From Cetorhinus maximus (lineage: Eukaryota): a DNA stretch of 64,000 nucleotides. This document shows, piece after piece, positions 94 to 64,000 of this stretch. The stretch is taken from NCBI RefSeq assembly GCF_964194155.1, contig NC_135879.1:170252001-170316000 (forward strand), given 5' to 3'. Below the pieces are notes generated by a model. It did not search any database and was not told the DNA's origin. It worked only from the letters and a program-made list of their open reading frames with translations. The position numbers and the translations under genes are program-made. The number at the start of each line of letters is the position of its first letter. Positions within the stretch are counted from its first letter, which is position 1.

Positions 94-865
94 GGGCAGA
101 ATTTTGCCCTTGTCAGGTGGGCTTGGTGAGGGCGAGTGGGGTGGGGGGGGGGTCAGGAAACTGAGCGCCACCTGCAATCAAGGCTGGAAAGTAATTTCAC
201 GCTGGTGGGCCAATTAAGGCCTTCCCAGTGTGAAATGTGAGCAGCAGTGCTCAGCGCTGCCTGTGCAGGCGGGGGGAGGAGGGCAGGCGGGTGGAGGAGG
301 GCGCGCGGGGGGAGGAGGGCACACGGGGGGAGGAGGGCACACGGGGGGGAGGAGGGTGCGCAGGGGGGGGAGGGCGCGCGGGGGGGGAGGGCGCGTGGGG
401 CAAACGCGAACTTCGCACATGTGTGAAAATCTCCTTGATGCTGCCTCAGGGAGATGAACAGTTTTTAAAAAAATGATAAAGAAATTAAAAATGTTATAAA
501 GCATGTGACTCTGTCACATGAGCAGGGACATGTTATTAATTAAGTTTTAAAATTTTAATTTAAATTTTATTTGCTTTAGTAAACCCCATCCCGCCCATGG
601 ATGAGGTTCCTAAAAAGTGCAAAGGCCGCTTGGCCTTTTCACCTGCCCGCCAACCGTAAGGTTGGATGGGCAGCGAAAAATTTCTTTTAATGGCCTTAAT
701 AGGCCTTTTAATTATTGGTGGGCGTGCTGCCGACTCCGGTACATGCCTGCCGACTGAAGTATCATGTGACTGTGCATTGACATCGGGACATTCTCCTGAA
801 GTCAACACGTGTCATTTTACGCTCGAGCGGGTCAGGCGTGCGCCTGCCCGCCGAGGTAAAAATTT
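94..865. mobile_element. Non-autonomous DNA transposon (MITE family A, Harbinger-like), copy 1
   Basis: Starts GGGCAGAATTTT and interrupts the CR1. Shares internal blocks (ggccaattaag, tgtcacatgagc.gggacatgtt, tggatgaggtt, aaggttgga.gggcagc, cattttacgc) with 5928-6515 and 19610-20153. Confidence 0.8.
270..400 (+). repeat. G-rich minisatellite (~17-18 bp unit GGGGGAGGAGGGCRCRC) inside the MITE
   Basis: About 7 imperfect tandem units; it produces the Gly-rich and Pro-rich ORFs at 214-504. Confidence 0.85.
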
Positions 866-3804
866 ATTAAATGCTCATGGTGTAGAGGTAACATATTAGC
901 AAGGATAGAGGATTGGTTAACTAACACAAAAAAGAGAATAGGGATAAACGAGTCATTGTTGGATTGGCAAGGTGTAATGGGTGGAGTGCCACAAGGATCA
1001 GTGCTGGGTTCTCAATTATTTACAATCTATACCAATGACTTGGATGAAGGGACCGAATATATAGCTGCTAAATCTGCTGACGACACAAAGATAGGTAGGA
1101 GAGTAGGTTGTGAGGAGGACATAAGGAGCCTGAAAAGGGATATAGATGAGTTAAGCGAGTGGACATAAATTTGGCAGATGGAGTATAAATTGGGAAAATT
1201 TGAACTTGTCCACTTTGGCAGGAAGAATAGAAAAGCAGTATATTATTTAAATGGAGTGAGATTGCAGAATTCTGCAGTACACAAGGATTTGGGTAACCAG
1301 GCACATGAAACACAAAAAAGTTAGTATGCAGGTACAGCAAGTGATTAGGAAGGCAAATGGAATGTTGGCATTTATTGCAAAGGGAATTGGGTATAACAGC
1401 AGGAAAGTTTTGATAAGTTTGTACAGGGTGTTGTTGAGACAAATCTGGAGTACTGTGTACAATTTTGGTTTCCTTACTTAAGGAAGGATATAATTTAATT
1501 AGTAGCAGTTCGGAGAAGGGTCACATAACTGATTCCTGGGATGAAGGGGTTATTTTATGAAGAAAGATTGGACAGGTTGGGCTTTTATCCATTACAGATT
1601 AGAAGATTGAGAGATGGTCTTATTAAAACATATAAGATTCTGAGGTGACTTGACAGGGTGGATGTTGAAAGGATGTTTGCCTTGTGGGAGGGACTAGAAC
1701 TAGGGGACACCCTTTAAAATTAAGGGTTCTCCCACTCAAGATGGAGATGAGGAGAATTGTTTTTTTTCTCAGAGGGTTGTTAGTCTGTGGAACTCTCTTC
1801 CCCAGAGAGCAGTAGAGGCAGGGTCATTGAATACATTTAAGGCTGAGTTAGACAGACTCTTAGTTAACAAGGAAGTCAAAGATTAGAGCGGGTAGACAGG
1901 AAAGTAGAGTTAAGGTCACATTCAGATCAGGTATGATCTTACCAAATGGCGGAGCAGACTTGAGAGACCGAATGGTCTTAATTCGTATGTTTGTTCATAT
2001 ATCTATTTATCCATGATACCCATGAGCATCTAATGTGTTTTCTTAATTCTTTCATGTTATGTGGTGCTCCCCTTTCATTGTTTGGCCCATGTTTGTGTTA
2101 ATTATCACATATGCCCATGTTGTCCGAATATTCTCTTTTCTTTCAACCTATTAATCTATTCTTAAATGTTGACATGGTTTCTGCTGCACTAAGTACAGTA
2201 GTACATTCCATAGCCACATAAACCTCTGTGTACAAAAGTTTTTCCTGATCTCTCACATTTATTTTATATCCATGTGCCTTCATTCTACAATGCTTAACCA
2301 CCGCTAGACTACATCAATTCCCAGGAGCAGACAGCAGTCTGGGCTGCTATCTGCGCAGCATTCAATGATATCAATGAGGTAAATTGCATTGGTAGTGGCC
2401 CGCTCTGCTGCCTGCCCCTGATGGATCAGCGTCAATCTCTGTAGCACCATTAGACACGGTGCTGCACGAACAAATATGCACCCCACCCCAGCCATTCTGT
2501 GACCATCTATTTTGATCCATCCCTTCATAAGTTTAAACACCTCTTTCAAATCCCCTTGATCTCCTCTGTTAAAATGAAAATAGGCCAGTTTTTCAAATCT
2601 TTCTTTCTATTGGTATTTCCTCATACTAAGTAGCACTTGTGCCTCAACACCCTCCCTATAATGTAGAATTCAAAATGGCACTGTTCTTCAGCTGTGGTCG
2701 TACTAAAGTTTTGTGGAGATTCATCTATATAATTGACCTATTAGTATAATTATCAATCCTATTACATGTCAAATTTTACATGTTGAAATACAGATGACAA
2801 ACTTAACTTTTCCGAAGCTTTTACACTGGATTATATTTTAGAGAAAGAAGTCATTTCACTCTCATTCTATGATTTTACTTGACAAAGTTTCATAACCCAA
2901 ATCTTTCATAAAAGTGAACTTCCATGTCATTGAGGCGAACATTTCTGATTTCAGTGTCATTAGTATTCAGGATTTTAGGACTCATTCTTAAGTAAACTAT
3001 GGAAGTTTATTCTCCTTCGATAGTTTATGTTGTATACTTAATTGGTTAGATTATGAAAAAAGATAGTTCACATGTATGGGCTATATTACTGCATTGTTGA
3101 CATTTCTCTAGAGAACCTAGATGTCAGGAGTTTACATCTAAACAATAGCAAATCAAAAACAGGAAACTGTTGGTGAGAAATACCCTTTATCTTCCTGCAA
3201 ACTCGCGTCACCGTCGTCCTCGGAGACTGAGATGTGGGAACACCAGGGTAAATAATCAGGATTTCATAGGCGAACATGCAATAATGTTTACAGCAAAATA
3301 ACAAAAAGGAATTGTTAACTTCACACATCCACATAACAGGAAATTAGGCTATGTCTGGCTCTTTCGCAGAAAACAAGTGTTTAGCTCTAAATAAAGTAAT
3401 TACTTCTCGTAAGCAACTATTTACAGTTCACAAAGGGATACTGGAAAAAAGGGCAATTGTTTTGTCAACTTATGAAGAATGAGCCAGGTTTGACCTAATT
3501 GCTATACATAAACAAAATAAAAATCTAAAAATAATGAGTTCAATTTACTACATTCAGAACTTTTTTTTTAAACATAAAGGTGTTTAAAGGCAACAGCGAT
3601 ATTGGAACGACCACTTGTGTCTGTTGATTGCAGAATGCTGCTAGCAGACATTTGTTACACATCAGACAGATCTTGGCTTAACTGGTATTGAAGTACAGTA
3701 AGAACAGAGCTCTGCACGTCATGATCTCTTCACTGCTAATTTTGGGAGAGCAAGGAGGAGCAATTATTCTCTAATGTTTAAAACACACATTTTAAACTTC
3801 TCAG

Positions 3805-5143: not shown

Positions 5144-5272
5144 ACAAAAATAAAATTCTGCAGATGCTGGAAACCAGAAATAAAAACAAAAAATTCTGGA
5201 AAATGTGGGTCAGGTGGCATCTTTGGAGAGAGAAGAGTTAATGTTTCAGGTTGATAACCTTTTGTCAGAATT
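5144..5272 (-). mobile_element. Penelope-type terminal-repeat fragment
   Basis: aaaattctgcagatgctggaaa...gagttaatgtttcaggttgataaccttttgtcagaa, homologous to 21586-21712 and 34837-35017. Confidence 0.55.
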
Positions 5273-15887: not shown

Positions 15888-17419
15888 GGATTGAGATGGG
15901 GAGAGTGTATCAGGAGGCCTGCTGGGCCAGATGATAAGTATGCCTGGCCTGTCTGGGTGGTGAGTGGTCCCATTTGTGAAAATACAGAATATAATTCAGT
16001 CAGTTACCATATAAAAAAGTCATACTTACATATTTAAAAACAAAAAACAACCACTACCAGCCAACTACCAATAAAGCAGTCAACTTGCCAAAAAGCAATC
16101 CTCAAAAATAACCACAGTTCACAAACACTTCAGTTACTTCAACATCTACTCCATTTTACTACAAATTCACTTCTCCATCCCCTTCTACTCTGCTTGAATT
16201 CACTCCACCTTTCAGAAAGGGATGCAAGGAAGGTATCCCAAGGAATGTCCAGTGCAAAAGAACATAATAAAAAGGATAATTGTCAATCATGTGAAAACAG
16301 CATTTTGCTCTGGTTAGAAATAGGCAATCCAAATTGTGACAGCATGAAACACAGAAATCTAATAAACACTGAAGATGCGAACAATATTATAAAAGGTACC
16401 TCAAACATTAAAGATATTGGGAATTATTTGGTGCACATAAACAGCCACTGCAAATGAGCTGCTATTTGATAGCCCCTTCCTTGTGTCACTGATCAATCCA
16501 CAGGATCCGGATGATCTTCCTAATTGCACAGGTTGTCTGGTCTTGTATCTAATGGCAATCATTTGGCCTGGAGAACTATTCTGCAATGTGGAGTGAGAGA
16601 ACCCTCCAATTCTAGTCAAATGTAAAAGTAGATCAACAGATGAGACCATTACTGTTCCTACATTTCTGAGTAGAGTAAATAATGATTGACTATTTTGATA
16701 AATAAGCTTTCTCATAGAGACTTTCTTAGATCAATGACAGGCTTTATGAATTTCTTTACAGTTAATACCCTTGTTTTCTGACACAGGATTACTCACCCAA
16801 CTTTAGTACATTGTATTCTGTACCCATTATAATGGTGTATTTACATTCTTTATCTAATAATCTGTTTGCTTACTAGATTATGTGCACTTAATTCTATTTT
16901 GAGAATGGGTTAATTATCCATACCTAGAATACTGTGGCTATGAGCAAGTGACAACAGTAATCCCAAACTTAAAAAAAGTATGTGCAGTTTATCTAATGAT
17001 ATTTTCTCAATCATTTCTAGTTACCTTTTATAGACATACATGATGCTGAATTTCTGCATCACGAAGTATAACCCTCATCATCGGCAGAATATCACTGGAC
17101 TTTGTTACACTCACAAAGCAGAAGGATGAGCCAATTATGGAATAACTCTTTCTCTTCTTTACTGCGTAGCATTTACCTACAATAAATAAACTTTTATCTG
17201 TGCTGTGCTAAGCTTTAATAGGCTTTGGTACTTCATAGCTCAGGGATCAAAGATTTTTTGACATTTTGTTATGATCTCTGTAGAGACTGATAACTTTTAG
17301 AAAGAGATTCCAGCTTCCAGTTACTGGCTGAAAGAATGACAGGGTAAGATTTCACATTTTAAAACTTTTACTCTTACAGATGACTTAAAAAAAACACTAT
17401 TGACTCAATAATTTTCTTT

Positions 17420-20559: not shown

Positions 20560-20845
20560 TATGGTAGCGTAGTGGTTATGTTGCTGAACTAATAAACAAG
20601 AATCCTACACAGATAATAAATAGATACACAAGAGCAAATCACACCATGAAACTCTGTGAATAAAAACATTAAATAAATCTGGTATGAAAAGCTGGTACCA
20701 GTAAAAATGATCATGATTGTTGTAAGAATCCAACTGGCTCTTAAATGTCCTTCAGGTAAGGAAATCTGCCATCCTAACATGGCTGGTCTACAATATTACT
20801 CCAGCCCTACACCAGTGTGGTCAACTCTTAATTACACATTAAAAT
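20560..20845 (+). mobile_element. tRNA-derived head (same family as the SINE at 47438)
   Basis: A-box-like ggtagcgtagtgg; body ..tgtccttcaggtaaggaaatctgccatcctaac..tgtggtcaactctt matches 47438-47705. Confidence 0.7.
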
Positions 20846-20851
20846 GTATCA

Positions 20852-21233
20852 GTCTTGGCTCAGCTGGTAGCGCTCTCACCTCTGAGTCTATAGGATGTGG
20901 GTTCAAGTCCCACTCCAGGACAAAAGTCAAGACTGACACTCAAGTGCAGTACTGAGGGACTCCTATGTTGTTAATGCCACGAGGCATTAAATTAAGGCCC
21001 CATTTGCTCTCTCAGATGGACATAAAATGTGGCAATATTTTGATCATAATCTATCCTTCAAATCAACATCACAAAAAACAGATTGTCTGGTCACCACCAC
21101 ATTGCGATTTGTGGGAGTTTGCTGGGTGAAAATTGCTGCTGCATTTCCTACAGTAACTATTCTTTAAATGTATTTAATTGGCTTAAAGCAATTTGGAATG
21201 TCTGGTGGTCGTGAAAGGCACTGTATAAATACA
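20852..21233 (+). mobile_element. DeuSINE (SacSINE1/AmnSINE1-like), near full length
   Basis: tRNA head ggctcagctggtagc..gggttcaagtcccac, Deu-like core, and 3' tail gtcgtgaaaggcactgtataaatac. Family assignment from recalled consensus. Confidence 0.75.
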
Positions 21234-21499
21234 ATTCAAGTCAAGTAAGCCACTCAGTTACATAGCCATAGTTCACAAACACTTCAGTTACTTCAGTACA
21301 AATCCACTCCATTTTACTACAAATTCACTTCTCAGTCTCCCCCTCTTCTCTGCTCTACTCTAATTTGCTTCAACTTTCAGAGTGGAGTACAACATAGGTA
21401 ACCTCTTCCTCTTCTCCAATTTGCCACTATGAGAATTAGTACAAAGAATAAAACAAGATGGGCCACTCGGTTTCAGTGTAAGCAGCGATTTCAGACACA

Positions 21500-22372
21500 C
21501 CTCAGCACTCCTCACTAACATCACAGGACATGTGCCAAAGTTTGCAAACTATTCCACAAACTAGACAAGCCACCGCCTACCCTTTTAAGGAAAGGTCATC
21601 GACTTGAAATGTTAACCCTGTTTCTCTCTCCACAGATGCTGCCTGACTTATTGAATATTTCCAGTAATTTCTGCATTAATTTCAGATTTCCAGCATTTGT
21701 TTTTTGGATTTGTAACAGCCTGACATAGTAGCACTCACAGAATCATATTCATCAGCCAATGTGCAAACATCTCCACCACATCACTGGTGATCCTATCCCA
21801 GCATGAGACACCTACCAGAGATAAGGACACAGTTGTAAACAGACAGCAATGACATGGAGTCTTCAGCAGTGGCTTTAGATCCCATGAAGTCTCGTGGTTT
21901 CAGGCAAAACATGGGCAAGGAAACATCCAGCTGATTAACACCTACTGCACTTCCTCAGATAATCAATCTGTGCTCCACTTGGATGAAATACTGAGGATTG
22001 GAAGGCCACAGAATGTACTCTGGATAGGAGAGTTCAATGTCCATCGCCAAGGTACCGCCACTGATCATGGTGGATGATTCATGAAAGACAGAGCTGTCAG
22101 ACTGGGCCTGCAGCAAATGATGAAAGAGAGCACAACCTACTTGCACATACTGATTTATCTGTTGCAGATGCATCTGTCCATGATGGTATTGGTAAGAGTG
22201 ACCACCACACAGTCCTCAAGGAGGCCAAGTTCCACCCTCACAGTGCAGACACCCTCCATCATGCTGTGCTAAAAGGGATAGATTGGGAACAAGTCTTGAA
22301 GATCAAAACTGGACATCCATGAGGCAGTGTGGGCCTTCAGCATCAGCAGAATTGCATTCAACCACAATCTAT
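21500..22372 (+). mobile_element. Family-2 LINE endonuclease region, interrupted by a Penelope-type fragment (21586-21712)
   Basis: Degenerate APE motifs: PDIVALTES, WIGEFNVH, SVHDGIGKSDHHTVL (ORF 22074-22322). Confidence 0.75.
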
Positions 22373-22679
22373 TGTTACAGACAGGAAAGGAGAGATAAAC
22401 TGAAACCCTCAATTCCCTTCCCTTCTGTCCGTAATTAGTGTGGTTTATGTATGAAAAGGTAGATGTATGTGTTTCTAAACCTGTTAATGTGTGGTCAATT
22501 TAAAGAGTACCAGCAGCAGACTTTCATGGGTTTAAACAAAGAGGATTATTTATTCACAAATTCACCCCTAAAGATCTAAATGCTACATCAGTCACACACC
22601 ACACAATCGGAAAGGCTACAACTGAAGAAGGCAGTGCACTTCTACAAGTATTAAACCAAAGGAATATTTAACAGTTCAC

Positions 22680-23190
22680 ATGTTTTTGAGAGTCCAGTGA
22701 AGAAGGACATTTTTCCACACTGGAATTGGTTTCCACCCACCCCCTCAGGCTGATCATGCCCCTTTTGTCCCCCTACCCACCCCCCATCGTGCCTCATGAC
22801 CCCTATGGCAAGCTTTGACACTTCCATGCCTGTTGACCCACTGTACACTTTCTAGAACCAGGAAATGCCATAGTGTATAGAGGGTATGTATAAAAAAAAG
22901 CTTTGAAAAAAGTAATCCATTGATAACTTTCTCCTATGCTTGAAAAAAATAGTCTAGGCCCCAAGTTAATAAGTCTCAATCATCCAGGCCCTTTGAGGTT
23001 TCAAAAACAGTAAGCCACAAACCCTTGCAACCACTTATGTCAATAAACATTGTGAAATTAACTGCAGAGATCAGAGAGCCTGAGCTGTCAATCAAACAAT
23101 GCTTCCTCTGGGGGCAGCTATTCAAATAGCTGTCTGGGCTCTCAGCCAAGCATATATAATAAGGCTTGGCTGAGAGCCCAGACAGCTATT
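22680..23190. mobile_element. Family B fragment ending in a perfect hairpin
   Basis: gagctgtcaatcaaac and C-rich catg repeats shared with 24775-25842. Confidence 0.5.
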
Positions 23191-23356
23191 ATATCATAAG
23201 GAATGACGGGGTCTGATTATTACATGAAGCAGAGAGGATATCTAGCAAACAAAATTGTGTTAGTGGGGAAGAGCAAAAAATCTTTGGTACATTGCATTTT
23301 CATTCCATTGTATCATTTGCCCTCAGTCAACAAGCTTATTTTGGAGGGAGGAAGGA

Positions 23357-23655
23357 CATGCATTTATGTAATCCTTTTCATGACCTCAGTTGGTCCCAAA
23401 GCTCTTTATAGTCAATTAAGTACTTCTGAAGTATAGTCACATCTACACGATATGAAAATGGAGCAGTCAATTTGTGCAGAGTTCACAGTTCCACAAACCA
23501 CAATATTTTTATTCAATAGTGACCAACACTGCTTTATTTTAGTTACATAGATTGAGGAATAAAAATTGCCCAAGACACTGGGAGAGCTCTACTGCTCTTC
23601 TTAAAATAATCCATGGGACTTTTAAATTCACCTGAGGGGGCAGATAAGGCCATCT
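23357..23655 (-). mobile_element. DeuSINE 3' part
   Basis: Reverse complement of the DeuSINE tail and core (catgcatttatgtaatccttttcatgacctcag..tcccaaagc..). Confidence 0.65.
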
Positions 23656-23689
23656 TAAAAAAACTTTTACAAGTAACAGCTCCAAAATC

Positions 23690-23920
23690 ACGTAAGTTAA
23701 CATGGCCACCTGCAAGATTCCCTTCAAGTCACAAGTCATCCTGACTTGGAAATATATTTCTGTTCTTTCACTGTCACTGGGCTGAAATGCTGAAACTCCC
23801 TCCCTAACAGCACTACGGATATATATATGCACAAGGATAGCAGTGTTTCAAGGTGGCAGCTCACCACTGCCTTCTCAGGTGCAATTAGAGATGGGCAATA
23901 AGTCTTGACCTTGCCAGCAA
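23690..23920 (+). mobile_element. Family-2 LINE 3' tail
   Basis: cacctgcaag..tcatcctgacttggaaatata..gcagctcaccac..gcaattagagatgggcaataa. Confidence 0.75.
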
Positions 23921-24774
23921 AAAAGATTATAACACTGCAAGTTATAACTCCAGAGGAAAATCAAACTTAATTACTCTGAAATTTAGGAAACAAAATAACC
24001 ACTTTGCTAAAGTCTAAATCTAGAATTCAAAGTTTCCTAGCTTGTTCGGCTAAATCGTGAATGTTCCCTGTCTTGCCACATGACCTGCAAATCTATCCAA
24101 TAACATGGAGCCAAATCCAGAAGTACTTTAGGTGTGTCAGACAAGCTTTTTCTTGCAACAATAATTTGGATAAAAGTACATTTTTCCATTTCTCTACACA
24201 TAAAAGTGTTTTCAATTTAGAAATTTTAATAGAATGGTTGATAAATGTGGACAGATATTGATATCATGGAAAAAAAACTTCCTCGACAAATATGAAAATC
24301 TATCAATACCTCAACATGCCTTAACAAATTACATCTCTATAGATCTGGTTGTGCCAAATGGCCAGCTTCTGTGTTGTATCTTCTATTTAGACCTCCTCAT
24401 ATAAAGATTTCTAAGAGCACTTTGCCGGTCAGAGGAAACAATGGCTTCTAAGTAGAAAGATAAAAGAGAAATGGAAAATTGCGTGTACAAAAATATAGCC
24501 AAAAAGAAAACTTTTCAGGAATTTTTTGAAAGGAGCAAGCAAGGTAGCAGATGGAAGAATTTAGAGAAAGGAATCCAGAAGGCAGGGGTATACTGGCTGA
24601 AAGAATGAACATTGGACGATAGAGCAGAGGTGAAGGAGAAATCTAGCATCAGCAGAAATGGGGTGCAAGCAGGGACATGTTGCTGGGGAAGATCATAACA
24701 GTTGGATGTAGCAAAGAAGTGGAGAATTTTAAAATGTAGAAAAGGATTTTAAAACCAGTTCACTGAGACACAAA

Positions 24775-26987: not shown

Positions 26988-27313
26988 TGTTGGATCCTTG
27001 GTCACTAGGTTAGCTGGACTAATGGATTCGGGTTGCACGCTTGTTTCAGGATGACTGAATTGGTACCATGGACATAGCAGATCAGCAGACGGTTCTTATG
27101 TAGAACACATTCTATTTATTTACAGAGGAACTCAGCAGCTACACTTGTGTACTTACAACAAAAACCCTGCCTCTACATTACAGACTCTTACTCTAGACTA
27201 CTGACTACAGACTACTAAGGTAGCTTGCGCTACTTTGCTATTGGGTAATAAGATCATGTGATCTTCTATTATAACATTCTTCTTAAAGGTATATTACACA
27301 TCAGATTACTACA
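26988..27313 (-). repeat. 3' LTR of Gypsy 1 (326 bp)
   Basis: TGT..ACA termini; about 90% identical to 31486-31783 by manual alignment. Confidence 0.92.
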
Positions 27314-31485: not shown

Positions 31486-31783
31486 TATTAGATCCTTGGT
31501 CACTAGTTTAGTTGGACTAATGGACCCGGGTTGCACGCTTGTTTTGGGATGGCCGAGTTGGTACCATAGGCATAGCAGATCAGCAGACGGCTCTTATGTA
31601 GAACACATTCTATTTACAAAGGAACTCAGCAGCTACATTTGTGTACTTACAGCTAAAACCTTGTCTCTACATTACAGGCTCTTACTCTAGACTACTCACT
31701 ACGGACTACTAAGGTAGCCCATGCTACTCTGCTATTGGGTAATAAGATCATGTGATCTTCTATTATAACATTCTTCTTAAACA
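31486..31783 (-). repeat. 5' LTR of Gypsy 1 (298 bp)
   Basis: Adjacent to the PBS; lacks 24 bp just inside the terminus and 4 bp internally relative to the other LTR. Confidence 0.92.
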
Positions 31784-34836: not shown

Positions 34837-35017
34837 TGTAGAATAAAGGCAAAGTACTGCAGATGCTGGAAATCTGAAACAAAAACAAAAATGCTGGAAA
34901 AACTCAGCAGGTCTGACAGTAAAGAAGGGTCATGCGGACTCGAAACGTTAATTCTGTCTTTCTCTCCACAGATGCTGTCAGACCTGCTGAGTTTTTCCAG
35001 CATTTTTTGTTTTTGTT
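34837..35017 (+). mobile_element. Penelope-type hairpin mini-element with 11-bp flanking direct repeat
   Basis: Inverted arms 34876-34919 and 34975-35019 (44-45 bp, one indel); flanked by TCTGTCAGTCC at 34826-34836 and 35018-35028. Confidence 0.65.
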
Positions 35018-35837
35018 TCTGTCAGTCCAGAGTTGTTTTCCACTGTGATTGCTATAATTTTTTTTACTGTTTCTTCATGGTATTGAGGATTCTATGGAGT
35101 TATGAAAGAACAAAATTCATTTTTTACTGCCTTATGGTGCATTTCATTATGGGCTATGTCTTCCAAATATACAAGATGACAAGTAACATCAGGATCCTTG
35201 TCAAATGGAATTTAGCATTCAGAATAACTTGCTGTCTTTCCAGTCTTCCACAGTACATTGTTGATTCTGATCCTGACATCCTCTCAGGTCTTGTCACTTG
35301 TCAAATCTATTGCAAAATTTGGAAATTCTTTAGATTTCATTGAAGGAGGTGCTTGACCCACTAACATGAGCTTACCTTTGAAAATGCAGAGTAGACATTT
35401 TCTACATCTTTGTGAGAGAAGATTTTGATAATGCGTTTCACATTTCTGGGTTTTTTGGGTCATATTTTCATATAAATGTTTTGGAGGGAGAAACTTGGCT
35501 TTTATGGATTGTTTTAATGCAAAATGCATTTGCACAAGTTTTGGGAGAAAAATGCAGTGAGACAGAAGTGATTAAAATGTTTTTGAACTCAGCTTTGAAA
35601 TTGTTTCCCTGAAGGCTAATCAATAAGCAATCCATTAGCCTGTCTAAGTAATTAACAAACCTCACACCTGTTGTGTCAGGAGGTCTTTCGTCCCAGGCAC
35701 TTGGTAGGGGCCATCTGGGATAGTTGCAAACACCGGGAGGTTTTAAAAAATAGTTGGGAACAAGTCAGGCAATCAGGTTTTTAAATAGAAAGCTGTGAGA
35801 CTAAACCCACCTGGGCTTAAAAGAAGAGTGCAGGAAA

Positions 35838-37231: not shown

Positions 37232-38280
37232 AGCATATGAGCGTACGAATTAGGAGCAGGCTTAGGCCATTCAGCCCCTTGAGCCTGATCTGATTGTCGC
37301 CTCAATTCCACTTTCCTGCCTACCCCCTATACCCTTTGACTCCCTTGTTAGCCAAAAATCTATCTACTTCTGCCTTAAAAATATTCAATGACCCTGCCTC
37401 CACTGCTTTCTGGGCAAGAGAGTTCCACAGACTCACAACCCTCTGAAAGAAAAAAAACTCATCTCTGTCGTAAATGGGAGACCCCTTATTTTTAAGCTAT
37501 GTCCCCTAATTCTAGTCTCTCCCACAAGGAGAAACATCCTTTCAACATCCACCCTGTCAAGTCCCATCAGGATTTTCTATGTTTCAATAAGATCACCTCT
37601 CATTCTTCTAACACCAATGGATACAGACCCAACCTGTCCAACCTTTACTCATAAGATAACACCCCTTCCATCCCAGGTATCAGTTGAGTTAACCTCCTCT
37701 GAACTTCTCCTAATGCATTTATATCCTTTCTTCAACAAGGAGACCAAAACTGTTCGCATTGATCTAGATGTGGTCTCACCAATGCCCTGTACAACTGTAG
37801 CAAAACACCCCTATTTTTAGCAATAAATGACAACATTCCATTTGCCATCCTAATTACTTGCTGCACCTGGATACTAACATTTTGTGATTCACGTATAGGC
37901 ACACCCAGGTCCCTTTGTACCGTAGAATTCTGCAATCGCGCTTCATTTAAATAATATGCCACTTTTCTATTCTTCCTGCCAAAGTGGACAAGTTCACATT
38001 TTCCCACATTATACCCCGTCTGCCAAATCTTTGCCCACAGGTTTCCTTTTGTACGCGTTGCTTGTTACATCCTCACAGAACTCTAATAAATTAGGCAAAC
38101 GTGATTTCCCTTTCACAAAACCACGTTGACTCTGCCCGATTACATTGAGATTATCTAAGTGCCCTGCTATAATCGCCTTAATAATAAATTCCAGCATTTC
38201 CCCTATGACAGATGTTAAACTGCCCTGCGGTTTCCTGCTTTCTGTCTCCCTCCTTTCTTGATTTAGTGCTGTGCTGTTGT
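37232..38280 (-). mobile_element. CR1 LINE fragment with 3' end
   Basis: ORFs 37732-38007 (KCELVHFGRKN..QRDLGV..LYRALVRPHL) and 38009-38296 (GFVKGKSRLPNLLEF). Confidence 0.9.
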
Positions 38281-39529: not shown

Positions 39530-40380
39530 TGGCATGCTACTTCTGCCATTTAGTATGTATGTAGTCCTTTGTTGTAACTTCACCAGGTTGGCACTTCATT
39601 TTTAGGTATGCCTGATGTTGCTTTTGGCATGTATCCCTACACTTCTCATTGATCCCTTGGCTTGATGTTAATAGTAGAGTGAGGAATATGCCAGGCCATG
39701 AGATTACAGATAATGGTGGAATATAATTCTGATGCTGGTGGTCCACAGTGGCTCATGGAGACCTGGTTTGGGGCTGCTAGATCGAATCGGAATCTATCTC
39801 ATTCGTATAGTTGTAGAGTCACGCCACACAATGAAGGTGTCCTCAGTGTGAAGATGGGACTTTATCCCCAGAAGGTCTGTGTGGTGGTCACTCCTACTAA
39901 TTCTGTTATGGACAGAAACATCTGAGAGAGGTAGATAGGTGCAGGTGTGTTCAACTACTTTTTCCACTCTTGTTGGTTCTCTCGCCAGCTTCCGCAGGCT
40001 GAGTTTGACAGATATGTCCTTCAGGCCTTGGCCAACTCGGTCAGTATTGGGGTGACTAAGCAACTCTTGATGATGGATATTGAAGTTCCCCCACCCAGAA
40101 TAGAGGCTCTGTTCTTGCTACCCCAGTGCTTCTTCCAAGTAAGTTGAACATGGAGAGGCACTGATTCATCAGCTGAGGGAGGGTTTAGTGGTAATCAGCA
40201 GGATGTTTCCTTGCCAGTGTTTGACCTGATGCCGTGAACTTCATGGGTCTGAAGTCAATGTTGGAGGCTGAGTTTAAATTCCCCAGCTGCTGTAGTAGGA
40301 TTTAATTTATGTTTCCAAAGAATTAATCTGGGTTACATTGGATTACACACCCAGCAACATTACAACTAGGTCACCGTCTC
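39530..40380 (-). mobile_element. Family-2 LINE endonuclease fragment joined to a tRNA-derived head (40266-40380)
   Basis: ORF 39794-40063 has SVHNRISRSDHHT; the reverse complement of 40266-40380 matches the SINE head at 47438 and 63820. Confidence 0.72.
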
Positions 40381-42569: not shown

Positions 42570-44150
42570 TGCTTTATATTCATTCACAGGATGTGGGCTT
42601 TGCTGGCTGGGCCAGCATTTATTGCCCATACCTAGTTGCCCTTGAGAAGGTGGTGGTGAGCTGCTTTCTTGAGTCACTGCAGTCCATGTGGTGTAGGTAC
42701 ACGCACAGTGCTGTTAGGAAGGGTGTTCCAGGATTTTGGAAGGTGCTGTCTAAGGAGCCTTGGTGACTTCCTGCAGTGCATCTTGTAGATGGTACACACT
42801 GCTGTCACTGTGCGTCAGTGGTGGAGGGAGTGAATGTTTGTGGCTGTGGTACCAATCAAGCGGGCTGCTTTGCCCTGGACGATGTCAAGCTTCTTGAGTG
42901 TTGTGGGAGCTGCACTCATCCGGGCAAGTGGGGAATATTCCATTACACTGCTGATTTGTGCCTTGTAGATGGTGGACAGGCTTTACGGAGCCAGGAGGTG
43001 AGTTACCTGTTACAGGATTCCTAGCCTCTGACCTGTTCTTGTAGCCACAGCCTTTATATGGCTAGCCCAGTTCAGTTTCTGGCTAATGGGGGATTCAGGG
43101 ATGGTACTGAACGTCAAGGGGCGATGGTTAGATTCTCTCTTGTTGGAGATGGTCATTGCCTGGCACTTATGTGGCACAAATGTTACTTGCCACTTGTCAA
43201 GCCCAAGCCTGGGTATTGTCCAGGTCTTGCTGCATTTGGACCTGGACTGCTTCAGTATCTGAGGAGTCATGAATGGTCCTGAACATTATGCAATCATCAT
43301 CGAACATCCCCACTTTTGACCTTTATGATGGAAGGAAGGTCAGTGACGAAGCAGCTGAAGATGGTTGGGCTGAGGACACTACCCTGAGGAACTCCTGCAG
43401 TGACGTCCTGGAGCTGAGATGACTGACCTCCAACAACCACAACCAACTTCCTTCGTGCTAGGTATGACTCCCACCAGTGGAGAGTTTCCCCCTGGTTCCC
43501 ATTGACTCCAGTTTTGCTAGGGCTCCTTGATGCGACACTCAGTCAAATATGGCCTTGATGTCAAGGGCATTCACTCTCACCTCACCTCAGGAGTTCAGCT
43601 CTTTTATCCATGTTTGAACCAAGGCTGGAATGAGGTCAGGAGCTTCGTGCCCCTGGCGGAACCCAAACTGGGCGTCAGTGAGCAGGTTATTGCTGAGCAA
43701 GTTATTGCTGAGCAAGTGTCGCTTGATAGCACTGTTGATGACCTCTTCCATTACTTTACTGATGATGGAGAGTAGACTGATGGGCCGGGTTGGATTTGTC
43801 CTGCATTTTTGTGTACAGGACATACCTGGGCAATTTTCCTCATAGCCAGATGCCAATCCTGTAGCTGTACTGGAACAGCTTGGCTAGGGGCGTGGCAAGT
43901 TCTGGAGCACAAGTCTTCAGTACTATTGCTGGAATATATTCAGGGCCCATAGCCTTTGCAGTGTCCAGTGCCTTCAGCTGTTTCTTGACATCACGTGGAG
44001 TGAATTGAGTTGTCTGAAGACTGGCATCTTTGATGCTGGGGACCCCTGGAGGAGTGGATCGTCCATTCGGCACTTCTGGCTGAAGATTGTTGCAAATGCT
44101 TCAGCCTTATCTTTTGCTGATGTGCTGGGCTTATGATGATGGAAATCTCG
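42570..44150 (-). mobile_element. Family-2 LINE RT region and 3' end
   Basis: ORFs 43840-44073 (KAMGPEYIPAIVLKTCAPELATPL), 43587-43856 (RPISLLSIISKVME..QFGFRQGH) and 43010-43270 (WQVTFVPHKCQAMTIS). Confidence 0.9.
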
Positions 44151-47437: not shown

Positions 47438-47785
47438 GTGGCGTAGTGGTATTGTCACTGGACTAGTATTCCAGAGACCCAGGGAAATGCTCTGGGGACC
47501 TGGGTTTGAATCCCACCACAGCAGATGGTGAAGTTTGAATTCAATAAAAATCTGGAAGTAAAAGTCTGATGATGACCATGAAGCCATTGTTGATTGTTGT
47601 AAAAACCCATCTGGTTCACTGACGTCCTATAGGGAAGGAAATCTGCTGTCCTAATCTGGTCTGGCCTACACATGACTCCAGACCCATAGCATTATGGTTG
47701 ACTCTGAACAAGGGAAGTTAAGGATGGGCAATAAATGCTGGTTTAGCCAGCGACACCCACATCCCATGAATGAATTAAAAAAATA
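47438..47785 (+). mobile_element. tRNA-derived SINE sharing its 3' tail with the family-2 LINE
   Basis: A box TGGCGTAGTGG, B box GGTTTGAATCC (47503-47513), tail ggatgggcaataaatgctgg..agccagcgacacccacatcccatgaatgaatt(A)n. Confidence 0.85.
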
Positions 47786-52623: not shown

Positions 52624-53743
52624 ATAGAAACTAGGAGCAGGAGTAGGCCATTCGGCCCTTTGAGCCTGCTCTGCCATTCATTATGATCATGGCTGATCAT
52701 CCAACTCAATAGCCTGCTCCCGCTTTCTCCCCATACTCTTTGATCACTTTCGCCCCAAGTGCTATATCTAACTCCTTCTTGAAAACATACAATATTTTGG
52801 TCTCAACTACTTTCTGTGGTGACAAATTCCACAGGCTCACCACTCTCTGGGTGAAGAAATTTCTTCTCATCTTAGTCCTAAATGGTCTACCCCATATCCT
52901 CAGACTGTGACCCCTGGTTTTGGACTCCCCCACCATCGGGAACATCCTTCCTGCATCTACCCTGTCTAGTCCTGTTAGAATTTTATAGGTTTCTATGAGA
53001 TCCCCCTTCATTCTTCTGAACTCCAGCGAATATAATCCTAATCGACTCAATCTCTCCTCATATGTCAGTCCCGCCATCCCAGGAACCAGTCTAGTAAACC
53101 CTTCGCTGCACTCCCTCTATAACAAGTACATCCTTCCTCAGATAAGGAGACCAAAACTGCACACAATATTCCAGGTGTGGTCTCACCAAGGCCCTGTACA
53201 ATTGTAACAAGACATCCCTGTTCCTGTACTCGAATCCTCTGGCTATGAAGGCCAAAATACCATTTGCCTTCTTTACCGCCTGCTGCACCTGCATGCTTAC
53301 CTTCGGCGACTGGTGTACAAGGATACCCAGGTCTCGTTGCACATTCCCCTCTCTCAATTTATAGCCATTCAGATAATCTGCTTTCCTGTTTTTTCTACCA
53401 GAATGGATAACCTCAGATTTATCCACATTATACTTCATCTGCCATGCATTTGCCCACTCACTCAGCTTGTCCAAATCACACTGAAACATCTCTGCTTCAC
53501 CCAGAGAGTGGTGAGCCTGTGAAATTCGTTACCACAGAAAGTTGTTGAGACCAAAACATTGTATGTTTTCAAGAAGGAGTTAGATATAGCTCCTCTCTGC
53601 ATCCTCTTCACAGCTCACCCTCCCACCCAGCTTTGTGTCATCTGCAAATCTGGAGATATTTCATTTAATTCCCTCATTTAAATCATGAATATATATTGTG
53701 AATAACTGGGGTACCAGCACCAATCCCTGCAGTGCCCCACTAG
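52624..53743 (-). mobile_element. CR1 LINE 3' ~1.1 kb inserted in the Gypsy 2 protease region
   Basis: Nearly intact ORFs 53091-53489 and 52706-53077 (LYRALVRPHLEYCVQFWSPYL; YEERLSRLGLYSLEFRR). Confidence 0.92.
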
Positions 53744-53974: not shown

Positions 53975-55890
53975 ATTTTTTTTTATTCATTCATGGGGTG
54001 TGGGCTTCGCTGGCTGGGCCAACAGTTATTGCCCATCCCTAGTTGCCCTTCAGAAAGTGGTGGTGAACTGCCTTCATGCTGCAGACCATTTGATGTAGGG
54101 TATACCCACAGTGCTGTTAAGAAGGGAGTTCCACAATTTTGACCCAGTGACAGTGAAGGAACGGCGACATATTTCCAAGTCAGGATGATGAATGACTTGG
54201 AGGGGAACTTCCAGATGGTGGTGTTCTCATCTATCTGCTGCCCTTGCCCTTCTAGATGGTAGTGGTCATGGGTTTGGAAGGTGCTGTCTAAGGAACCTTG
54301 GTAAATTCCTGCAGTGCATCTTATAGATGGTACACACTGCTGCTAGTGTGCATCAGTGGTGGAGGGAGTGAATGTTTGTGGATGTGGTGCCAATCAAACG
54401 GGCTTTGGGGAGTCAGGAGGTGAGTTACTTGTCACAGGATTCCTAATCTTTGACCTGCTTTTGTACCCACAGTATTTATATGGCTAGTCCAGTTCAGTTT
54501 CTGGACAAAGGTAACCCCCTGGATGTTGATAATGGGGGATCCAGTGATGGTAATGCCATTGAACATCAAGGGGCGATGGTTAGATTCTCTCTTGTTGGAG
54601 ATGGTCATTGCCGGCACTTGTGTGGCGTGAATGTTACTTGCCACTTGTCAGCCCAAGCCTGCATTTGGACATGGACTGTTTCAGTATCTGAGGAGTCACA
54701 AATGGTGCTGAACATTGTGCAGTCATCAGTGCACATCCCTACTTCTGACCTTTATGATAGAAGGAAGATCATTGATGAAGCAGCTGAAGATGGTTGAGCC
54801 GAGGACACTACTCTAAGGAACTCCTGTAGTGATGTCCTGGAACTGAGATGACTGACCTCCAACAACCACAATCATCTTCCTTTGTGCTAGGTATGACTCC
54901 AACCAGTGGAGAGTTTTCCCCCTGATTCCCATTGCAGCCTTGATGTCAAGGGCAGTCACTGTCGCCTCACCTTGGGAGTTCAGCTCTTTTGTGCATGTTT
55001 GAACCAAGGTTGTAATGAGGTCAGGAGCTGAGTGGCCATGTTGGAACCCAAACTGTGTGTCAGTGAGCAGGTTATTGCTAAGCAAGTGCCACTTGATAGC
55101 ACTGCTGATGACCCCTTCCATTACTTTATTGATGATGGAGAGTAGACTGATGTGGCGGTAATTGGCTGGGCTGGATTTGTCCTGCTTTTTGTGTACAGGA
55201 CATACGTGGGCAATTTTCCACATAGACGGTTAGATGCCAGTGTTGGCGCTGCACTGGAATAGTTTGTCTAGGGGTGCAGCAAGTTCTGGAGCACAAGTCT
55301 TCAGTACTATTGCTGGAATATTGTCAGGACCCATAGCCTTTGCAGTATCCAGTGCCTTCAGCCATTTCTTGATATCGCGTGGAGTGAATCAAATTAGCTG
55401 AAGACTGGCATCTGTGATGCTGGGGACCTCCGAAGGAGTTAGAGTTGGATCATCCACTCGGCACTTCTGGCTAAAGATTGAAGCCAATGTTTCAGCCTTA
55501 TCTTTTGCACTGATGCATCATTGAGGATGGGGATATTTGTGGAGCCTTCTCCTCCTCCAGTGAATTGTTTAATTGTCCACCACTATTCACGACTGGATGT
55601 AGCACAATTGCAGAGCTTAGTTCTGATCCGTTGGTTGTGGGATTGCTTAGCTCTGTCTACCACTTGCCGTTTATGCTGTTATGTATAGTCCTGTGCTATA
55701 ACACCTCATTTTTAGGTATGCCTGGTGCTGCTCCTGGCATGCCTTCCTGCACTCTTCATTGAACCACGGTAGATCCCCTGGCTTGATGGTAATGGTAGAG
55801 TGCGGGATATGCTGGGCCATGAGATTCCAGATTGTGTTCAAGTACAATGCTGCTGCTGATGGCCCACAGCACCTCATGGATGCCCGGTCC
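53975..55890 (-). mobile_element. Family-2 LINE ~1.9 kb inserted in Gypsy 2 gag
   Basis: ORF 54813-55223 (WKIAHVCPVHKKQDKSSPANYRHISLLS..ALDIKAA) plus the shared 3' tail with poly(A). Confidence 0.9.
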
Positions 55891-63819: not shown

Positions 63820-64000
63820 GGGGAGGCAATGGCATAGTGGTAAAGTCACTGAACTACTAATCTGGAGGCCCATGCTAATGTTGTGGGTTCACGGGATCAA
63901 ATCTGACTATAGCAGCTGGTGGAATTTAAATTCAATTAATATATCTGGAATTAAAAAGCTTGTGGTGACCAATAGCAACCATGAGTCCAATGCCATAAAA
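63820..64000 (+). mobile_element. tRNA-derived head (same family as 47438)
   Basis: ggggaggcaatggcatagtggtaaagtcactgaactactaatc..gcagctggtggaatttaaattcaat. Confidence 0.75.

Follow-up and report, generated by a model that had tools for sequence, protein, structure and literature searches.

The region 20560–22372 of the window (the whole 64,000-nucleotide stretch of the basking shark genome analysed here) raises the question of whether a tRNA-like head lying 5' of a LINE endonuclease is the true 5' end of that LINE and, if so, which RNA polymerase transcribes the element. The region was found to be the decayed 5' third of a 3.29-kb LINE with a single ORF (endonuclease and reverse transcriptase), split by three insertions and collinear with the family majority over element positions 9–1223, so that the same-orientation run from head to endonuclease claimed in a preliminary description of this DNA holds. 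The head and 5' body (element 9–295) occupy 20563–20846 on the plus strand, with the A box at about 20565–20575 and a decayed B box at about 20632–20642. They are followed by a tRNA-headed SINE of another family (20847–21239, plus strand), labelled Deu type and placed at 20852–21233 in that description, after which the LINE continues at the next element base (element 296–319 at 21240–21263, plus strand, by mapping to the family majority). An unrelated insertion of ~175 bp (about 21264–21438), part of which recurs at 16108–16194, and an inserted fragment of another abundant repeat (21571–21713), also present at 5161–5262 and 34876–35019, had gone unnamed; between them lie the end of the 5' region and the start of the endonuclease (element 339–494 at 21439–21570, plus strand), and beyond them the decayed AP-endonuclease coding region (element 495–1223 at 21714–22370, plus strand), 70% identical to the family majority and ending at other repeats. 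The endonuclease, previously given as 21500 onward, has its motif I starting near 21508, and the spacer of about 250 bp shrinks to 138 nt between the end of the body and motif I.

A 3' piece of the family (element 3039–3262 at 23699–23921, plus strand) may be the terminal part of the copy just described. In the mixed repeats at which that LINE copy breaks off (22373–23698) lies a near-perfect 66-bp palindrome at 23125–23190, the repeat inserted at 21571–21713 forms an inverted head-to-head pair at 34876–35019, and two direct copies of 298 bp, 90% identical, lie at 26990–27287 and 31488–31781.

The recurrence of the head of the 47438 repeat at 20560–20845, reported before, was confirmed at 20563–20846 with a local alignment score of 184 against a shuffled mean of 42 and a maximum of 68.5 (300 shuffles). 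The second copy (39535–40380, minus strand), in which the head had been seen joined to endonuclease, is indeed the same element with an internal deletion (element ~116–657): element 4–115 at 40380–40269 is joined to 658–1407 at 40263–39535, and its head scored 84 against the 47438 repeat (shuffled mean 30, maximum 50.5). Both diverged heads lie upstream of endonuclease-like sequence on their own strand. The window also contains a short non-autonomous form (element 11–280 joined to 3217–3291 at 47439–47783, plus strand), two 5'-truncated copies on the minus strand (element 1558–2991 and 3123–3288 at 42573–44131; element 1160–3291 with gaps at 53977–55889) and a third head at the window edge (element 1–150 at 63820–63971, plus strand). 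Taken alone, the two window copies are weak evidence for a head belonging to the LINE, and the case is carried by 55 genomic loci.

These loci come from two endonuclease-only searches of the source genome (3.99 Gb), the best 30 of 40 scored candidates being kept from each and the window's own locus and four duplicates removed; the family itself was built from an endonuclease-only search with 29 loci besides the window's among the matches listed. The head was reached (element position 60 or less) by 39 of the 55 distinct loci, a proportion that is not the genome-wide share of full-length copies since such searches favour long ones, while 10 ended in the body and 6 after position 292. In the 600 nt upstream of the 16 shorter loci, nothing was found in common and no alternative 5' end appeared. 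In 53 control loci, some of them loci of an unrelated repeat and used as background only, the head occurred 6 times in 214,334 bp, or once per about 36 kb. A separate interspersed repeat family (L266–L295, query L037:1700–2980) was also encountered, at least 2.5 kb long, with copies about 72% alike and proline/serine-rich open frames.

The proposed comparison of head-endonuclease adjacency with chance bears on the idea that independent SINE insertions were nested by chance upstream of 5'-truncated LINE copies. The window copy is full of insertions and 4 of 30 loci of the short form lie inside or beside LINE copies, as nesting would have it; against this, the head stands in register and on the same strand in 39 of 55 loci against one per about 36 kb elsewhere, and at LINE loci it lies upstream of the endonuclease without a SINE tail of its own. 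We regard chance nesting as already refuted and its probability as negligible. The count of heads within one target site duplication (TSD) pair, also proposed, is unusable for this family because 20 full-length copies show no detectable TSD, the longest word common to both flanks measuring 5.05 against 4.64 in mismatched pairs.

The shared sequence starts abruptly at the head and continues, in 20 extended loci, for ~3.2 kb to an A tail. The majority of 16 long copies measures 3291 nt and agrees at 99.0% identity with a second majority, drawn from 20 other loci. The majority holds one long frame of about 970 codons, interrupted solely by one or two TGA codons resembling CpG decay, and natural copies matched Pfam endonuclease (PF14529/PF03372) and reverse transcriptase (PF00078) domains. 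Only 430 nt precede endonuclease motif I in the family majority, so there is no room for an ORF1. A single ORF with AP endonuclease and reverse transcriptase and no ORF1 is the organisation of Zenon LINEs of the CR1 group, and the copies finish, as those do, in short A runs. The arrangement of tRNA head, endonuclease-reverse transcriptase and tail that had been suspected is thus supported for the family as a whole. The copies are 80–95% like the majority, with no young copy among the best genomic matches, and they look old in the basking shark genome. A distinct older subfamily was sought with an 80% copy (L037) as query and rejected, the matches being 88–95% like the same majority.

The head of the family majority opens G-rich, with its A box at +11 and its B box near +75. 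For this head ARAGORN under relaxed settings predicts a cloverleaf in which the anticodon position reads AGT and the variable arm is long, the element starting about 3 nt before the predicted tRNA +1; default ARAGORN called no tRNA in the window, and Rfam gave no tRNA match on five decayed loci. The cues to the donor conflict, the anticodon position reading AGT yet the long variable arm being Ser/Leu-like, and a comparison with 22 distinct genomic tRNA sequences of only five isotypes (Ser and Leu not among them) gave weak alignments in which Thr(TGT) and Cys tied. Large tandem tRNA gene clusters are present on genome contigs C36, C11 and C26 (Lys, Val, Cys, Ile and Thr among those called). An identification of the body with MetaSINE was rejected, the 66-bp Meta domain as given in the supplement of PMC7245038 bearing no likeness to it by eye.

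The repeat at 47438, first described as a SINE, does have the A/B-box head and a LINE tail; its best interpretation is a LINE that has undergone an internal deletion. It consists of the LINE's first 292 and last 75 bases. All 30 loci found with it as query, which itself selects for the two-ended structure, consist of element 1–280/292 joined to 3214/3224–3291 (joint about 3217), and the same head-tail joint is present in contigs of other sequencing runs. Compared with the LINE ends, the short-form majority is identical at 283 of 292 and 71 of 75 positions, with no private sequence. The short form agrees with SINE2 elements in its tRNA-derived head with A and B boxes, in being non-coding and in having its tail in common with a LINE; the 3.29-kb form, with about 970 codons, is neither short nor non-coding. 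The simplest reading is that the short form derives from the LINE by internal deletion. An older SINE may have given its head to the LINE first. Four of the 30 short-form loci (L217, L220, L231 and L232) lie inside or beside a parent LINE copy, three of them in the same orientation, a possible insertion preference.

Whether the family was already catalogued had been left undecided; on its sequence it is the elasmobranch Zenon (Stuart et al. 2026, PMC13343379). In the supplement rows of that work, compared by eye, the first 400 letters of CarCar_Zenon-1 match the family majority almost letter for letter, and all seven published elasmobranch Zenon consensus sequences start with the head and have no T4 in the first 400 letters, while in two hagfish rows and one coelacanth row, whose orientation and completeness are unverified, the head is not visible and T-runs are plentiful. 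As far as these rows go, CarCar_, ScyCan_, RhiTyp_, HypSab_ and SquAca_Zenon resemble the basking shark family in being mostly 3.24–3.31 kb long, without ORF1 and with an A tail, and PMC13343379 reports that the family persists, with identity above 84%, in five elasmobranch species. Intact copies are listed there, in supplement table 3, for HypSab (3 of 612) and RhiTyp (1 of 1419). In contrast, the main text of PMC13343379, with 0 occurrences of 'tRNA', 'polymerase III' and 'Pol III', describes neither the head nor the T purge nor the short form derived by deletion. The searchable literature (Repbase, Dfam and subscription journals lie outside this scope) yielded no account of a shark LINE with Pol III transcription or a tRNA head, and as far as that literature goes the family is known and its promoter architecture undescribed. 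A quick reverse transcriptase tree, which included no named Zenon reference, placed the element, along with 7 of 80 metagenome relatives, in a clade of 30 rows (SH-aLRT 98), mostly relatives of single-ORF size, and the CR1 family of the same genome lay apart from it. Scans of viral contigs gave no relatives.

Several known systems share part of this organisation. The tRNA-derived SINEs (SINE2), including the bipartite LINE-derived SINEs treated by Kojima (2018, PMC5786205), likewise combine an A/B-box head, a T-run-free body and a LINE-type tail; in the shark family, however, it is the autonomous coding LINE itself that owns the head, and nothing in the short form is private to it, whereas the bipartite SINEs are presented there as RTE or Vingi UTR pieces to which a tRNA head was added. 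The Persaeus SIDEs of lepidopteran Zenon are also short non-autonomous forms produced by internal deletion of a Zenon LINE, but according to the relevant passage of PMC6740152 they have neither tRNA homology nor a Pol III promoter. RTE-1_DAn and related elements, LINEs with tRNA-like sequence, are a possible precedent, although they belong to the RTE clade and the passage of PMC5786205 that names them gives neither the position nor the function of the tRNA-like part; within the searchable literature the name RTE-1_DAn occurs in that paper only. The TRIMp3 elements Cassandra, Helenus and Ajax are retroelements with a small-RNA-derived Pol III promoter, but are described in the corresponding part of PMC10886601 as non-autonomous, non-coding LTR elements of 0.3–1.3 kb.

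The sense strand of the element is strikingly poor in T-clusters. Both majorities contain 0 TTTT and 5–6 TTT in 3.29 kb, against 72–73 AAA, 62–63 CCC and 52–54 GGG; the search for T4+ terminators proposed at the outset thus found none, which favours the claim of a Pol III unit. The shortest Pol III terminators are TTTT and TVTTT, with TCTTT, TATTT and TGTTT measured as weak terminators according to the results given in PMC8466645, and all four sequences are absent from the sense strand of the majority. When protein and codon usage were held fixed in synonymous shuffles, out-of-frame TTT numbered 0 against 11.0 expected in the first majority (0 of 2000 shuffles as low) and 0 against 10.8 in the second (0 of 5000 shuffles as low, shuffle minimum 2), and AAA, CCC and GGG were not depleted. 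Windows with four T in five positions numbered 1 against 9.9 expected (P 0.002). With T content this low, the absence of T4 does not by itself reach significance (P 0.09 and 0.12); the case rests on TTT and on the four-of-five windows. Individual genomic copies carry 0–2 T4 runs against 4–30 per equal length of flank (11 copies). A control built likewise from one CR1 family of the same genome had 13 out-of-frame TTT against 13.4 expected and 4 T4 runs in 317 codons; this canonical CR1-type LINE, with T-runs at expectation, also lies in the window at 1154–1931 (minus strand), 37248–38038 (reverse transcriptase frame on the minus strand) and 52629–53457. Among 80 related metagenome loci, of which L169 was left out of the T test for want of an ORF of 250 codons, 79 of 79 ORFs had at least two T4 runs with an observed/expected ratio of at least 0.59, including seven of equally low T content; a strict B box was missing upstream of all 79, and comparison of the head with the 80 gave no real match, though many of them contain little upstream DNA. 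The Phe content of the element (1.8%) is below that of all 62 database proteins and the 79 ORFs. Head and T purge co-occur only in the elasmobranch Zenon lineage among the sequences seen, as Pol III elongation would demand. Like the architecture of the element and the two-ended make-up of its short form, the strand-specific purge is a directly observed property of the family.

Since the element itself begins with a tRNA-like head carrying A and B boxes and its coding strand lacks T-runs, its active form is likely, judging from its sequence, an autonomous, protein-coding LINE of Zenon type transcribed by Pol III from the internal promoter in its head. TFIIIC and TFIIIB would bind the A and B boxes, and Pol III would start at the G-rich first bases, elongate unhindered through 3.3 kb and stop at the first T-run in the flanking DNA. 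The RNA would presumably be uncapped, and its translation would proceed without an in-frame AUG, from a non-AUG start or by a frameshift from the AUG at 348. In the majority no in-frame AUG occurs between position 293 and endonuclease motif I: the AUG at 293 is the last in frame before the motif and runs directly into a stop, the AUG at 348 belongs to a different frame and overlaps motif I, the endonuclease has its first in-frame Met no fewer than 100 codons in, and 12–13 AUGs lie upstream. Stop read-through from the AUG at 293 was considered and rejected, the second majority having another in-frame stop before 320. The endonuclease-reverse transcriptase protein would then start at the A-rich tail and copy the RNA by target-primed reverse transcription. 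The ancestral elasmobranch Zenon would likely have gained its head by a template switch to a tRNA or a tRNA-SINE, and deletion of element 293–3216 would have given the abundant SINE-like form. Pol III is said, in the title of a 1995 article by Gunnery and Mathews, to be able to make functional mRNA.

The length of 3.3 kb counts against Pol III transcription, lying far beyond the 100–700 bp range of SINEs, which is attributed to weak Pol III processivity in the discussion of SINE size in PMC10886601. This problem and that of the cap would both disappear if the head were a true part of the LINE and Pol II made the coding transcript, the tRNA-like fold serving as a TFIIIC-bound or processing element and U-runs being avoided for some other reason, for example RNA decay, splicing or translation. 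We hold this main alternative, in which the processing would be an RNase P-type cut of a read-through transcript (compare the HDV-like ribozymes of R2 and RTE), to be improbable, though worth serious weighing. With the element beginning only ~3 nt ahead of the predicted tRNA +1, processing and a Pol III start fit equally well, and the RNA-type data consist of contigs only: those of four runs, three of them only guessed to be RNA, cover 30 of 30 element bins and are silent on start, strand, cap and polymerase. One run labelled coral metagenome RNA has contigs over all 30 bins, probably from shark material in the sample, and raw 2026 DNA reads were placed 107 times in run X22 and 0 times in X23 and X24. 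Pol II transcription, however, leaves unexplained why exactly T-clusters, including the weak TVTTT, are purged from the sense strand only in the head-bearing lineage, and the AATAAA at element position 115 would put a Pol II transcript at risk of premature cleavage.

The lack of an in-frame AUG before the endonuclease motif would also suit a 3.29-kb form that makes no protein of its own, being a long Pol III-transcribed retro-chimera of a SINE head and a captured ORF mobilised in trans by a head-less Zenon. Such an origin appears very unlikely to us: the majority frame is open for ~970 codons save the one or two CpG-decay-like TGA, with both enzymatic domains present, the T purge makes use of synonymous positions and leaves the protein as it is, a head-less partner with a different 5' end did not turn up, and the persistence at over 84% identity in the five species listed in PMC13343379 does not fit it. 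Transcription of an autonomous coding element by Pol III thus stays the preferred reading.

Pol III is normally used for short non-coding RNAs. The fuller picture, which we think somewhat better than an even chance, is that sharks and rays would harbour an autonomous coding retrotransposon transcribed end to end by Pol III, with a 3.3-kb mRNA lacking a cap and an in-frame AUG, an ORF recoded to drop terminators, and a SINE born by internal deletion, a step for which no fusion is needed once the SINE arises. Cultured cells would allow a direct test of this claim. If true, this natural multi-kilobase coding Pol III transcript would allow cap-independent, AUG-free initiation as well as Pol III processivity to be tested, and some SINE families would be deletion products of a Pol III LINE.
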